64,000 bases of DNA from an uncultured Chromatiales bacterium. Its GTDB lineage: Bacteria > Pseudomonadota > Gammaproteobacteria > SZUA-140. The notes under the pieces are model-generated. The model had not been told where the DNA came from and made no database searches. It saw only the letters and a program-made list of their open reading frames with translations. The position numbers and the translations under genes are program-made. The stretch spans positions 24,523 through 88,522 of the forward strand of contig CAYTGL010000006.1 of assembly GCA_964437335.1 (NCBI GenBank). Reading direction: 5' to 3'. Within the stretch, counting starts at the first letter, position 1. Every line of letters begins with the position of its first letter. Of the stretch, positions 8,679-11,975 are shown one piece after another.

Positions 8679-8831
8679 TTACTTGAACGGGTTGTCGTCG
8701 TTGTCGCCTGCCTGCTTTTTCTCCCAATACCGGTAGCTGTCGACAAAGAAGACCCCGTACACGGCAAAGCACAGGAAGACCACCGCGATTATTGCAGCGA
8801 ATACTCCCGGTGCGTAATCAATGTCGATCAT
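8679..8831 (-). CDS. 50-aa single-TM protein, CcoQ-like by size and position
   Basis: Manual translation gives MIDIDYAPGVFAAIIAVVFLCFAVYGVFFVDSYRYWEKKQAGDNDDNPFK. It has an ATGA overlap with the upstream stop. Not in the ORF track. Confidence 0.7.
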   Translation of the reverse strand: MIDIDYAPGVFAAIIAVVFLCFAVYGVFFVDSYRYWEKKQAGDNDDNPFK

Positions 8832-9493
8832 GCTGAGACCCCCTTCTTCATGTTCGGCTTCTTAGAGAAATGCGGCAGACGCTTGCAGACAATGACCATC
8901 GCCAGAATAAAGTAGGACACATAGAGCACGTCGATCGTATAGCCCTTGTCCCACCACGGTTGCGTGCGTTTACGCAGGCCATCCGGTCGGTACTCGCCCT
9001 CAAAATTCGCGAGCACCAACTGATCGTAGACGACGATATAACTTTCGAGGCCATAAGGTCCGCCGGCGACCGCGGCTTCCCTGATCTGGGGAGCAATCAA
9101 CTGCAGGTCATACCACGTCAACTGCGGACACTGGCGATCGATGAGCCCGGCCAGGCGACTGTCGTGGCCGCTGGCGATATGAGCCTCCTTCGCGTGGCGA
9201 CACACGAAATTCTTCTTTTCCTCGGGCGTCTTCAGTGCCTGGACTTGAGGGGAATCCATTATTTCCACCATCGGGTAATACAACTCGGCTGTCGGCCTCA
9301 GCCCCCAGATCGGCATCGTGACCATAAAAGCGGTAACAATGATCAAACCGAGCAGAAAAGTAACCGGAAACGGGAGACGGTTGTTGCCTTCCCACAGACC
9401 GCCCTGCTTTTCGTGCTCCCAGCGCTGAATCGCTTTCCTGTTTTCCTCTTCGTCAGCCATGCTGTACAGAGGATTATCCATTTTCCAGGCCAT
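8828..9493 (-). CDS. CcoP N-terminus-like 2-TM protein without heme c motifs
   Basis: HEKQGGLWEGNNRLPFP plus a TM helix resembles the CcoP HEWDGI.ELNNPLP segment. It directly follows ccoO and has no CxxCH. Confidence 0.65.
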   Translation of the reverse strand: MAWKMDNPLYSMADEEENRKAIQRWEHEKQGGLWEGNNRLPFPVTFLLGLIIVTAFMVTMPIWGLRPTAELYYPMVEIMDSPQVQALKTPEEKKNFVCRHAKEAHIASGHDSRLAGLIDRQCPQLTWYDLQLIAPQIREAAVAGGPYGLESYIVVYDQLVLANFEGEYRPDGLRKRTQPWWDKGYTIDVLYVSYFILAMVIVCKRLPHFSKKPNMKKGVSA

Positions 9494-9508: not shown

Positions 9509-10468
9509 TTATTTCAAGCTGGTCAAAACCCAGTCGATTACTGCCCGGATCTCGCTATCACGTGCATATTCCGGTACCTCCGGCGGATAGGCCCGCAAGC
9601 CCTGGCGATACTCGTTATACTCGCGACGCCACTTCGGATAGTCGATCTTGTTGCCCTTGGCATCGACGCGACCCCACAGATAATCGAAGCGCGGCATAAT
9701 CGAGTTCGGCTGAGTCAGGCGAGGATTGAAGAAGTGCATCATCATCCACTCGCGCGACGAATTGCGGGAGGCTACGTGCAATATGTCGGGCGCCTTGCGA
9801 TCCGATCCAAATGAAGTCGGGTTTTCACCGTTCATGTCGCCGACATACGGAGGCCAGCCAAAGATCTGGAAGTCCTGGGCTGCCTCGGGCAGCAGCGTAT
9901 GGCACCACCAGCAGCCTTCGGTGACATAGACCGTCTTGCCCCTGGCGACATAGCGGTGATTCTCGTCTCCGGTGGCACGCAATATTTCTTCAGGCATCCA
10001 TCCGCGTGTCGCGGTCGCGTTTTCGATGTAGGCCCACTCCTCGCCCTTGCTGCTCTTGCCATAGCTGATCGTGAAAACCGCACCGGTGTTTTTGTCCGCC
10101 TGGTCGATGCGTCCCTTTTGAATGCTCAGCTGTTGTACTGTCGATCCAAGATTCGCTGGATGGTTGACCGTCGATGCGAACGGCGTGCCCGGCTTGTAGA
10201 CATAGGCACGAATCGCGGGATCAATTGGTGCGCCGGTCTTCGGATCCTTGCTCAATATCACCGTAATCGGCTTGCCCGCACCACGCACAAACGGATCTTC
10301 ATAGGAAAATCCGATTACGCGACCATTCGACAGCGCCTTGTCCAGCCCCACCCAGGTCGAGTCCGCCGACCTGAAGTCGAAGCTGGGCAGGAACAGGGTT
10401 ATCGTCATCGACAACCCGAGCATTGCGCCGACGCCTACTGATCCGAGTTTATATTCTTGGAATGCCAC
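9509..10468 (-). CDS. ccoO: cbb3-type cytochrome c oxidase subunit II with a large periplasmic insertion
   Basis: G..VY..EGCWWCHT, FGSDRKAPDI, W...HF.NPR..QPNSIMPRFDYL. GTG start after a GAGGGGAG RBS. Confidence 0.9.
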   Translation of the reverse strand: MAFQEYKLGSVGVGAMLGLSMTITLFLPSFDFRSADSTWVGLDKALSNGRVIGFSYEDPFVRGAGKPITVILSKDPKTGAPIDPAIRAYVYKPGTPFASTVNHPANLGSTVQQLSIQKGRIDQADKNTGAVFTISYGKSSKGEEWAYIENATATRGWMPEEILRATGDENHRYVARGKTVYVTEGCWWCHTLLPEAAQDFQIFGWPPYVGDMNGENPTSFGSDRKAPDILHVASRNSSREWMMMHFFNPRLTQPNSIMPRFDYLWGRVDAKGNKIDYPKWRREYNEYRQGLRAYPPEVPEYARDSEIRAVIDWVLTSLK

Positions 10469-10565: not shown

Positions 10566-11975
10566 TTACCTTTCGTAGGCCAGCTCGTGCGCATAACGGC
10601 CCTTGGGCACCACGGTCCCCTCACGGGCGGTCATATACATGTTGTAGAGCCAGACCATGTTTCCGGTGAACACCATCGTGCCGCCGATCCAGCGTCCGAT
10701 CATGTAGGGATGCTCGGCGACGACGACGTCGATATACGGCACCTGGTATACCTTGGCGGCGCCCTGAATCAGACCCGCGACCGTCATCGTGATCCAGTAG
10801 ATGCAGAATCCGATGAGCACGAACCAGTAGTGGAAGTTGGCAAGCACCAGCGAGTAGAGCTTTCTGCGCAGCACCTGCTGCAAACCGAAGTACACGGCCG
10901 CGATTTCGAGGAAGCTCGACATGCCGAGCAGCGCGAGGTGCGCGTGCGCCACGATCCAGCCGGTGCCGTGGATGTACCAGTTGATCGCGCGGGTCTGCTG
11001 GAAACCGCCCTGCATGTTCAGCGGGATGGCGAGCAGCACGCCGGTGACCGAGAACTTGATCTCGATGTTCTCGACGAACATGCTCCAGCGCCCTTTCATC
11101 GTCAGCAGGATGTTGGCGACGAACGCGACCGCCGGGATCAGGATCAGCACGCCCTCGACCGAAGCGAAGGACTTCAGCCACTCCGGCAGCGGCGCCGACA
11201 GCAGGTGATGCGAGGCCGGCGTCGAGTAGAACGCGATGATCGACCAGAAATGCAGGTGACCGACGCGGTGCGAGTACAGCGGATTACCGGTCAGCTTCGG
11301 GATCGTATAGTATGCGATCGCCGCGGCCACCGGCGTGATCCACAAGCCGAGCACGTTGTGCGCGAACCAGAAGGTCAGATAGCCCTCGGTCAGTCCGGTC
11401 AGATTGAACAGTTCCGGAGACTGGCCGACGACGAACGTCGTCATGACGAAGAAGATACAGGCCCCGAAGAACCAGTTCGTGATGTAGATACCCTGCGTTT
11501 TTCGCTGCGCAATGGTCATCCAGACGTTGATTCCCAGCGGCAGCAGTACACCGAATATGATGACCAGGTCGATCGGCCAGATCAGGTCGGAGTACTCGCG
11601 GCCTGAGGTGAATCCCGTCCACAGCAGGATCAGGCCGAGCGACAGACCGACATTCCACATAAAGGCAGTCCAGAGACCGAGCTTTTCAGACCACAGTCTG
11701 GTGTTGCCGAGGGCCGGCGTCATGTACATCATGGTCATCGCGAAGGCCATCGAGATCCAGCCCAGGATGACCGCGAGCACGTGCACCTGGCGCATGTGTC
11801 CGAACGCAAACAACTCGGTCCCCGTCACCATATCCGGGAAAGCGAGTTTGGACGCATTGAACGAGCCGAGGCCGGTGCCTACGATGAACCACAGGATCGA
11901 GGAAAAACCGAAGAAGAGCGTCGCTGTTCCCGGCGGGATATCCTCAGATTTCGCGAACAAATATTTCAGTATCAT
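10566..11975 (-). CDS. ccoN: Divergent cbb3-type (C-family) heme-copper oxidase subunit I
   Basis: QVHV (heme b), REYSDLIWPID, WFAHN (CuB), YSTPASHH (Tyr plus CuB His pair) and WIVAHAH (b3/b ligands). GGAGG RBS. Confidence 0.95.
   Translation of the reverse strand: MILKYLFAKSEDIPPGTATLFFGFSSILWFIVGTGLGSFNASKLAFPDMVTGTELFAFGHMRQVHVLAVILGWISMAFAMTMMYMTPALGNTRLWSEKLGLWTAFMWNVGLSLGLILLWTGFTSGREYSDLIWPIDLVIIFGVLLPLGINVWMTIAQRKTQGIYITNWFFGACIFFVMTTFVVGQSPELFNLTGLTEGYLTFWFAHNVLGLWITPVAAAIAYYTIPKLTGNPLYSHRVGHLHFWSIIAFYSTPASHHLLSAPLPEWLKSFASVEGVLILIPAVAFVANILLTMKGRWSMFVENIEIKFSVTGVLLAIPLNMQGGFQQTRAINWYIHGTGWIVAHAHLALLGMSSFLEIAAVYFGLQQVLRRKLYSLVLANFHYWFVLIGFCIYWITMTVAGLIQGAAKVYQVPYIDVVVAEHPYMIGRWIGGTMVFTGNMVWLYNMYMTAREGTVVPKGRYAHELAYER

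Follow-up and report, generated by a model that had tools for sequence, protein, structure and literature searches.

Can a terminal oxidase of the cbb3 type give up residues that mechanistic models of this enzyme treat as conserved and still serve as a respiratory oxygen reductase? This question is raised by a ccoN-like gene (positions 10566..11975, minus strand) in 64,000 nucleotides of DNA from the metagenome-assembled genome (MAG) of an uncultured Chromatiales bacterium (assembly GCA_964437335.1, contig CAYTGL010000006.1, 24,523-88,522 of the forward strand); we refer to this whole stretch as the window. The product of the gene, 469 amino acids long, is a divergent subunit I (CcoN) of the C family (cbb3-type) of heme-copper oxidases (HCOs). 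An earlier note had aligned it by hand with Pseudomonas stutzeri CcoN, had listed several exchanges around the active site and the proton channel, and had suggested that heme b3 potential, O2/NO reactivity or proton pumping may differ from the canonical enzyme, a functional suggestion that appears reasonable. We find that the most conspicuous of these exchanges, Glu to Gln, is ordinary for non-canonical cbb3 enzymes, and that the truly distinctive item is a proton channel that lacks its Tyr. We consider it likely that the window CcoN serves as the catalytic subunit in a functional cbb3-type oxidase that reduces O2, and that it represents a distinct and tight subfamily of iron-oxidising and electrode-feeding Proteobacteria.

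The assignment to the C family draws on profile, sequence and structural comparisons. The Pfam COX1 model (PF00115) spans the protein end to end (model positions 3-436 of 436, 243 bits), and the top NCBIfam models are those of cbb3 subunit I; the score of 218.6 bits with TIGR00780, the ccoN equivalog, nevertheless lies far below the trusted cut-off of 583.15 bits, which the canonical ccoN of a related genome passes with 686.6 bits. The whole-model COX1 match taken together with this shortfall therefore describes a real but divergent CcoN. A phmmer search against PDB sequences aligned residues 22-451 with residues 17-460 of P. stutzeri CcoN (3mk7_A, 212 bits), and identity to canonical CcoN is about 30%. 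An AlphaFold2 model computed from an alignment with diverse relatives reached a predicted local distance difference test score (pLDDT) of 91.5 and a predicted template-modelling (TM) score of 0.92; an earlier run on clade members alone, with a pLDDT of 63 and values below 50 in the regions of interest, was dropped. The model superposes on 3mk7_A with a TM score of 0.89-0.90 and a root mean square deviation of 1.6 Å over 462 columns, and the TM scores fall from the cbb3 structures 3mk7_A and 9g6b_A (0.89-0.90) through the cytochrome c-dependent nitric oxide reductases (cNORs; 0.81-0.83) to ba3 oxidase (0.79). As modelled, the protein has the cbb3 fold and is a full-length COX1-type subunit of twelve transmembrane helices. 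It carries the marks of a C-family subunit I, namely six His ligands, the helix-VII Tyr and a neighbouring monoheme subunit that matches FixO. Those of a canonical cbb3 are incomplete, with a TIGR00780 score under the cut-off, no E323, a reduced set of channel residues and no diheme CcoP in the operon, and those of NorB, the nitric oxide reductase subunit (cNOR/qNOR), are lacking, in that the FeB-ligating Glu at the +4 position is absent (AHNVLG, with Gly at H207+4) and Y250 is present.

Residue correspondences were taken from a MAFFT alignment of the window CcoN with 98 other relatives; numbers marked Ps refer to P. stutzeri CcoN, rebuilt from phmmer output and checked against known ligand positions. 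The MAFFT and phmmer registers agree and contain no gap in either sequence between Ps H207 and H347, and since the AlphaFold2 model superposes on 3mk7_A there is no sign of a register shift. Within this frame, Ps FYGMSTFEGP corresponds to LAIPLNMQGG in the window protein. The position of Ps E323, the hydrogen-bond partner of the heme b3 proximal His, is occupied by Q322 (codon CAG, 11010..11012, minus strand, as are all features given here), and that of the proton-channel Tyr, Ps Y317, by A316 (codon GCC, 11028..11030). In the cytoplasmic half of helix VII, Ps RLSIVHFW reads RVGHLHFW, within the motif SHRVGHLHFW, so that S240 and I241 are replaced by G239 and H240 (codons GGT CAC, 11256..11261). 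Ps SKEYAE reads GREYSD: E122 is retained as E127 and E125 becomes D130 (E127-Y-S-D130, 11586..11597). All six heme and CuB ligands are kept as H65, H206, H256, H257, H344 and H346; in Ps numbering H60 and H347 bind heme b, H345 binds heme b3, and H207, H257 and H258 bind CuB. The predicted cross-link Tyr, Ps Y251, corresponds to Y250 in FYSTPASHH, six residues before the HH pair, and the stretch from Y250 to H256 and H257 (11205..11228) is invariant in the clade and in relatives with the full ligand set. Further Ps residues that are retained comprise E122, T215, Y223, H243, N289 and T293. The manual alignment of the earlier note, with its Glu to Gln, Tyr to Ala, Ser to Gly and KEYAE to REYSD exchanges and its retained ligands and helix-VII Tyr, is thus borne out by both phmmer and MAFFT, and the structural superposition that it had called for agrees. 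One worry that it raised, that a proper alignment might place a Glu at the position of E323, did not materialise: we found neither Glu nor Asp in the window segment aligned to Ps 308-335.

These exchanges are features of a clade and not of one sequence. Identities to the window CcoN range from 72 to 91% among the 120 best database clusters, and a library clustered at the 50% level retains a single representative of the whole clade, the next full-length relative being 38% identical. Q323, A317, H241, N321 and D125 occur in 120 of the 120 members, as does E275 (all Ps numbering), and G240 occurs in 116. Across 84 species-level loci, both Gln codons and all four codons each of Ala and of Gly are used at the signature sites while the encoded residue stays constant; because the clade is invariant despite this synonymous turnover, the signature residues are fixed and under selection. 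The substitutions are due to neither chance nor sequencing error, and the window ccoN is under strong purifying selection. A more distant relative, P0121 (465 amino acids, 58% identical), shares G240, H241, A317 and Q323 with the clade; it departs from the clade past residue 336 or so and is without the helix-X His pair, which a frameshift or a chimeric gene call may explain.

Which of the exchanges are unusual was assessed across the C family in a sample made up of the 150 best matches to the window CcoN, in which lineages resembling the query are over-represented. Among 100 aligned sequences the ligand set and the Tyr are complete in 45, and 39 of these lie outside the clade. We counted as canonical those at least 40% identical to P. 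stutzeri CcoN, Bacteroidota-style CcoNO fusions included. All seven canonical sequences have S240, H243, Y317, T321 and E323. The 32 non-canonical full-ligand representatives outside the clade, in contrast, have Gln at 323 in 30 cases (Glu and Trp once each) and Gly, Ser or Ala in place of H243, while Y317 is kept in 31 (Phe in one) and S240 in 27 (Gly in four, Ala in one). A maximum-likelihood tree puts the clade on a long stem (0.87) inside the Q323 group (SH-aLRT 97, an approximate likelihood ratio test) and the canonical E323 clade apart from it on a stem of 0.77. Glu to Gln is therefore no peculiarity of the window CcoN, being the usual state outside the canonical branch: Gln323 is inherited from the wider non-canonical branch, and Glu is a canonical, P. 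stutzeri-like trait. The other Q323 lineages that can be named are Planctomycetota (including the cultured Telmatocola sphagniphila), Armatimonadota, Anaerolineae, Alicycliphilus/Ottowia and Thiobacillus, none of which, to our knowledge, has a biochemically characterised enzyme of this kind. The earlier note's view that its substitutions are atypical thus holds in that we found no solved or characterised normal cbb3 that carries them (S240, H243 and S276 stand in five of the five solved cbb3 PDB sequences, E323 in the three displayed at that site), and fails for Glu to Gln, the majority state (30/32) in non-canonical lineages.

Position 317 is different. Outside the clade it is Tyr in 38 of the 39 full-ligand sequences, and Ala is confined to the clade. 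Gly at position 240 is found in 4/39, and position 125 is Glu in 36/39. On these sequence counts Y317A is the only one of the earlier note's substitutions that is peculiar to the clade, S240G being clade-typical yet recurrent elsewhere. The other clade-specific changes are R55H, G255A, S276G, P367Q, I241H, T321N, M319P, M275E, Y338G, D340G and S358E. Hydroxyl side chains have thus given way to small residues at three sites (S240, S276 and Y317), new polar or ionisable residues (H241, E275 and N321) lie close by in the sequence, and a Pro has been added in helix IX. The clade-invariant Glu of helix VIII, E274 in the window, adjoins the Gly that replaces S276 (E274 G275, 11151..11156; E274 at 11154-11156). 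Outside the clade, position 275 is Phe, Gly, Ala or Ser, save for Glu in P0130 and Asp in P0131, both near relatives; as these two combine E/D275 with Y317, we rejected the idea that E275 strictly compensates for the missing Tyr.

Some further observations concern the same alignment. Three clade-invariant ionisable residues fall in transmembrane helices, E274 (helix VIII), E357 (helix X, 10905-10907) and H60 (helix II, 11796-11798), at positions where other C-family enzymes carry hydrophobic residues or Arg. We asked how E274 relates to the helix-VIII Glu of cNOR, and a query of helices VI-VIII did not recover NorB. The helix IX-X loop (residues 332-346, 10938-10982), INWYIHGTGWIVAHAHLA, is nearer to NorB (INYYTHGTQ..AHGHLA) than to canonical CcoN (VNALSHYTDWTIGHVHAG), and the clade-specific changes Y338G and D340G (Ps numbering) lie within it. 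Among the 100 aligned sequences, which come from the C-family-like representatives of 50% clusters that lie closest to the window CcoN, 55 are without at least one heme or CuB His ligand or the cross-link Tyr; these ligand-less CcoN homologues are full-length at 460-500 amino acids (for example P0128, P0134, P0159, P0169, P0175, P0197, P0201 and P0203), and some may be fragments or misaligned.

The genome in which the window gene resides bears directly on its function. In the host MAG, of 3.2 Mb and 96% completeness, the window CcoN is the only full COX1 protein; two COX1 fragments of 170-190 amino acids are separate genes, and the single FixO match is the window CcoO. We found no cytochrome bd, no nirS and no NorB in this genome and no NirK above cut-off, NirK-like multicopper oxidases being present only below threshold. 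A sub-cut-off ccoN-type match occurs in 29 of 36 species genomes of the host's order (full-length in 27, with TIGR00780 scores of about 216-234 bits) and a canonical ccoN in one (687 bits). In a Ca. Tenderia MAG, a CcoN 78% identical to that of the window is likewise the only full HCO. Such a setting makes it less likely that the enzyme has turned from O2 to another substrate. When each species was represented by one genome, 337 genomes proved to carry a relative, and the best 80 of the 337 (76-96% identity) belong to Chromatiales and other Gammaproteobacteria MAGs, Ca. Tenderia, Sideroxydans, Ca. Gallionella acididurans and Burkholderiaceae. Carriers span three proteobacterial classes and include Gallionellaceae and Zetaproteobacteria (Mariprofundus). 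The sequencing runs that hold the exact window gene are DNA metagenomes only, with no RNA runs among them. No RuBisCO large subunit was matched in the 96%-complete host MAG; Tenderiales relatives have been described as Calvin-cycle autotrophs (10.1101/2022.05.06.490989).

The gene family has been encountered before in genome papers, and it is the residue-level description that is added here. In genomes of iron oxidisers two cbb3 subtrees that differ in subunit composition are distinguished, and their names, 'proximal' and 'distal', follow Ducluzeau et al. 2008 (PMC8788666, PMC7029218, PMC10734462). Most of the expression values for both cbb3 clusters of Sideroxydans lithotrophicus ES-1 exceed the 93rd percentile (PMC8788666), and CcoN and CcoO were the cbb3 subunits detected in the proteome of Mariprofundus ferrooxydans PV-1 (PMC5520029). 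The corresponding region of Ca. Tenderia electrophaga was listed with a 'truncated CcoN', thioredoxin, CcoN and CcoO, was termed 'a sort of alternative complex IV', and was reported to be conserved in freshwater iron oxidisers as well (10.1101/2022.05.06.490989). On an O2-respiring biocathode a non-canonical 'complex IV-2', which we do not equate with the window-type ccoN, was among the top-expressed genes while canonical ccoNOQP was low (PMC5371394). In the papers covered, which deal with the cluster and its expression, we found no discussion of the clade's active-site and channel residue changes.

How, then, might such an enzyme work? C-family enzymes have a single proton-input channel, K_C, which we take to comprise T215, Y223, S240, H243, N289, T293 and Y317, as seen in the P. 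stutzeri structure and in mutagenesis of the Vibrio cholerae and Rhodobacter sphaeroides enzymes. The window CcoN retains five of these seven and has lost S240 (to Gly) and Y317 (to Ala), the latter a neighbour of the cross-link Tyr. Its partner is a CcoO-like cytochrome c, and it keeps the full heme b and b3-CuB ligands and the cross-link Tyr. Because it is the sole full HCO of a genome in which no cytochrome bd was found, it is most likely a working O2 reductase in which the top of the single proton channel has been rebuilt. The rebuild is specific to the clade and takes in the upper K_C channel and the surroundings of the active site. On the most economical reading the upper channel would be wider and filled with water, with ordered water held in the cavity left by the lost Tyr and the two lost Ser, and the new His and Asn, perhaps with the Glu, would line this cavity such that protons still reach the cross-link Tyr. 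Gln is still able to act as hydrogen-bond acceptor for the proximal His; it is, however, neutral, and on general heme chemistry a neutral partner would lessen the imidazolate character of this His and raise the midpoint potential of heme b3 over that of canonical cbb3. The same would apply to all Q323 lineages. The low heme b3 potential of cbb3 has been ascribed to the His-Glu hydrogen bond (PMC8398457).

Taken together, these features of gene and genome give the window CcoN a good chance of being a working cytochrome c:O2 oxidoreductase, and several points weigh against this. We know of no enzyme of the clade, or of any identifiable Q323 lineage, that has been purified, and O2 reduction and pumping are here deduced. 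Y317 and S240 count, from mutagenesis work, as functionally important channel residues in canonical enzymes, and their loss could impair or alter proton delivery. The water-filled cavity and the proposed roles of E275, H241 and N321 are suggested by the sequence and by where these residues fall in the helices. With the MAG at 96% completeness, the organism may have a second oxidase that the assembly lacks. The 2022 Tenderiales preprint concluded, from the same data as the biocathode study, that canonical cbb3 is the main terminal oxidase (10.1101/2022.05.06.490989), which contradicts PMC5371394.

The loss of Y317, S240 and S276 from the only proton-input channel also invites the reading that the enzyme reduces O2 while pumping poorly or not at all, acting as an O2 scavenger or as an electron sink for high-potential donors instead of converting energy efficiently. 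E125 has in addition become Asp, Y338 and D340 near the loop on the P side have become Gly, and a protein without heme stands where CcoP would be expected; all of this would fit such an enzyme. Set against it are the strict retention of T215, Y223, H243, N289 and T293, a conservation that is extreme (at least 72% identity over three proteobacterial classes), and the finding that no terminal oxidase other than the window-type CcoN turned up in this genome or across most of the order. Lithotrophs that feed on iron or electrodes live on very small energy margins, and because these energy-limited organisms depend on the window-type CcoN alone we regard a poorly pumping or non-pumping enzyme as improbable.

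A main substrate other than O2, such that the protein would be a C-family-derived reductase of NO or of another small oxidant, seems to us more doubtful still. The idea takes some encouragement from the NO reductase activity of canonical cbb3 (PMC8398457), from the loop INWYIHGTGW...AHAHLA, which is more like NorB INYYTHGTQ...AHGHLA than canonical CcoN, and from a host genome that is without NorB and has a NirK-like multicopper oxidase below cut-off. It sits poorly with the invariance of the three CuB His and the cross-link Tyr, the absence of a FeB-type Glu at H207+4, a fold nearer to cbb3 than to cNOR, and the failure to find nirS, NirK above cut-off or any other O2 reductase in that genome; homologues are, moreover, strongly expressed in obligately O2-respiring iron oxidisers and in biocathode electrotrophs. 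An alignment artefact behind the 'missing residues', or a gene in decay, has a negligible chance of being the explanation, and we rejected both: the register is ungapped between invariant ligands, three independent alignment methods agree with one another and with the superposition, the open reading frame (ORF) is intact, the residues are conserved in 120/120 and their codons turn over synonymously, while the sub-cut-off TIGR00780 score indicates divergence only. A functional O2-reducing cbb3-type oxidase accordingly remains the reading that we prefer. It is possible, though we hold this only tentatively, that the clade is in addition a functionally distinct C-family subtype, with a channel that would do without the near-universal helix-IX Tyr by using water, H240, N320 and possibly E274 (window numbering), and with a Gln-bonded proximal His and a higher-potential heme b3; together these would tune it to take electrons from donors of high potential, for example Fe(II)-linked cytochromes or cathodes poised above +300 mV. 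If this is true, the Glu and Tyr that cbb3 mechanism models treat as 'conserved' belong to a single branch.

Directly downstream of ccoN lies an enlarged CcoO-like monoheme subunit of 319 amino acids (9509..10468, minus strand), in which Pfam FixO matches the heme domain only (residues 176-266; 53 bits against a cut-off of 29.6). It is followed, in the position of CcoP, by a 221-amino-acid membrane protein (8828..9493, minus strand) for which we found no Pfam or NCBIfam match, no heme motif and no PDB sequence similarity to solved CcoP; its Mariprofundus counterpart (217 amino acids) has the same position. Beyond about 17 kb the window is ordinary chromosomal housekeeping (RpoN, PtsP-like, RecG, SpoT). 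In Mariprofundus ferrooxydans, whose CcoN is 73% identical, the gene order is kept over about 17 kb (loci L084-L087): cytochrome c, a 170-amino-acid COX1 fragment, a thioredoxin-like protein, small ORFs, CcoN, CcoO, the 217-amino-acid protein, further small ORFs, cytochrome c, a formylglycine-generating-enzyme (FGE)-like protein, a spermidine-synthase-like protein and a CcoG-like protein. Given CcoN identities of 73-96% to 120 proteins and 80 loci, where 70% was the threshold, and an order shared with Mariprofundus and with the published Tenderia gene list, the window belongs to the iron-oxidiser/Tenderiales-type cbb3 cluster. One Mariprofundus locus (L084, 6219-7280) has a 353-amino-acid multicopper oxidase (Cu-oxidase_3/Cu-oxidase/Cu-oxidase_2) within the cluster, upstream of ccoN; the window has no multicopper oxidase gene at the equivalent place, and the NirK-like sub-cut-off matches of the host lie on another contig (C16). 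A zetaproteobacterium and a gammaproteobacterial MAG thus have in common a CcoN of 73% identity and an order of about 17 kb, the next relative being at 38%, which suggests that the whole cluster has spread laterally among iron oxidisers and electrotrophs, or else is under extreme constraint.

Current models of the cbb3 mechanism, with their low-potential heme b3, single K_C channel, high O2 affinity and NO side activity, rest entirely on the canonical proteobacterial branch. The His-Glu pair is a His-Gln pair in most of the non-canonical lineages sampled, and a widespread clade is without the channel Tyr; neutrophilic iron oxidisers and cathode-feeding electrotrophs appear to rely mainly, and often solely, on an oxidase of this clade. 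Because the energy margins of these hosts are very small, the way in which their oxidase delivers and pumps protons bears on the bioenergetics of iron oxidation and of electrosynthesis. The clade is in this sense a natural 'mutant' with which the mechanism of cbb3 can be probed.

Comparison with known systems places the window enzyme among these. With canonical CcoN (P. stutzeri 3MK7/5DJQ, P. aeruginosa 8SMR, R. capsulatus 6XKW) it shares the twelve-helix fold, the ligands, the cross-link Tyr, E122 and five channel residues, and in both cases a CcoO-like monoheme cytochrome c follows ccoN. It differs from canonical CcoN by E323Q, Y317A, S240G, S276G, E125D, G255A and R55H and by the gain of H241, N321, E275 and P319 (Ps numbering), and from the canonical operon by the enlarged CcoO and by the heme-less 221-amino-acid protein where diheme CcoP sits. 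The other non-canonical CcoN lineages resemble the window in having the full ligand set, Q323 and mostly His at 237; unlike it they have Tyr at 317 in 31/32 and, for the most part, Ser at 240 and 276, carry Gly, Ser or Ala for H243, and are at most 38% identical to the clade. NorB of cNOR (P. aeruginosa 3O0R, R. denitrificans 4XYD) shares the superfamily fold (TM score 0.81-0.83) and a similar HGT motif in the IX-X loop, but has FeB-ligating and nearby Glu residues and no cross-link Tyr, whereas the window CcoN has the Tyr and Gly at H207+4. The closest system is the 'cbb3-1/cbb3-2' region of Ca. Tenderia electrophaga (CcoN ALP51729.1), together with the second of the two cbb3 subtrees of iron oxidisers, the non-canonical one, and the window shows no substantive difference from it: the Tenderia region and the window both run from a diheme c, a monoheme c, a truncated CcoN, thioredoxin and small ORFs to CcoN and CcoO, and end with unknown genes, a monoheme c, an FGE-like protein and a spermidine-synthase-like protein, and the window cluster is a further member of that system.

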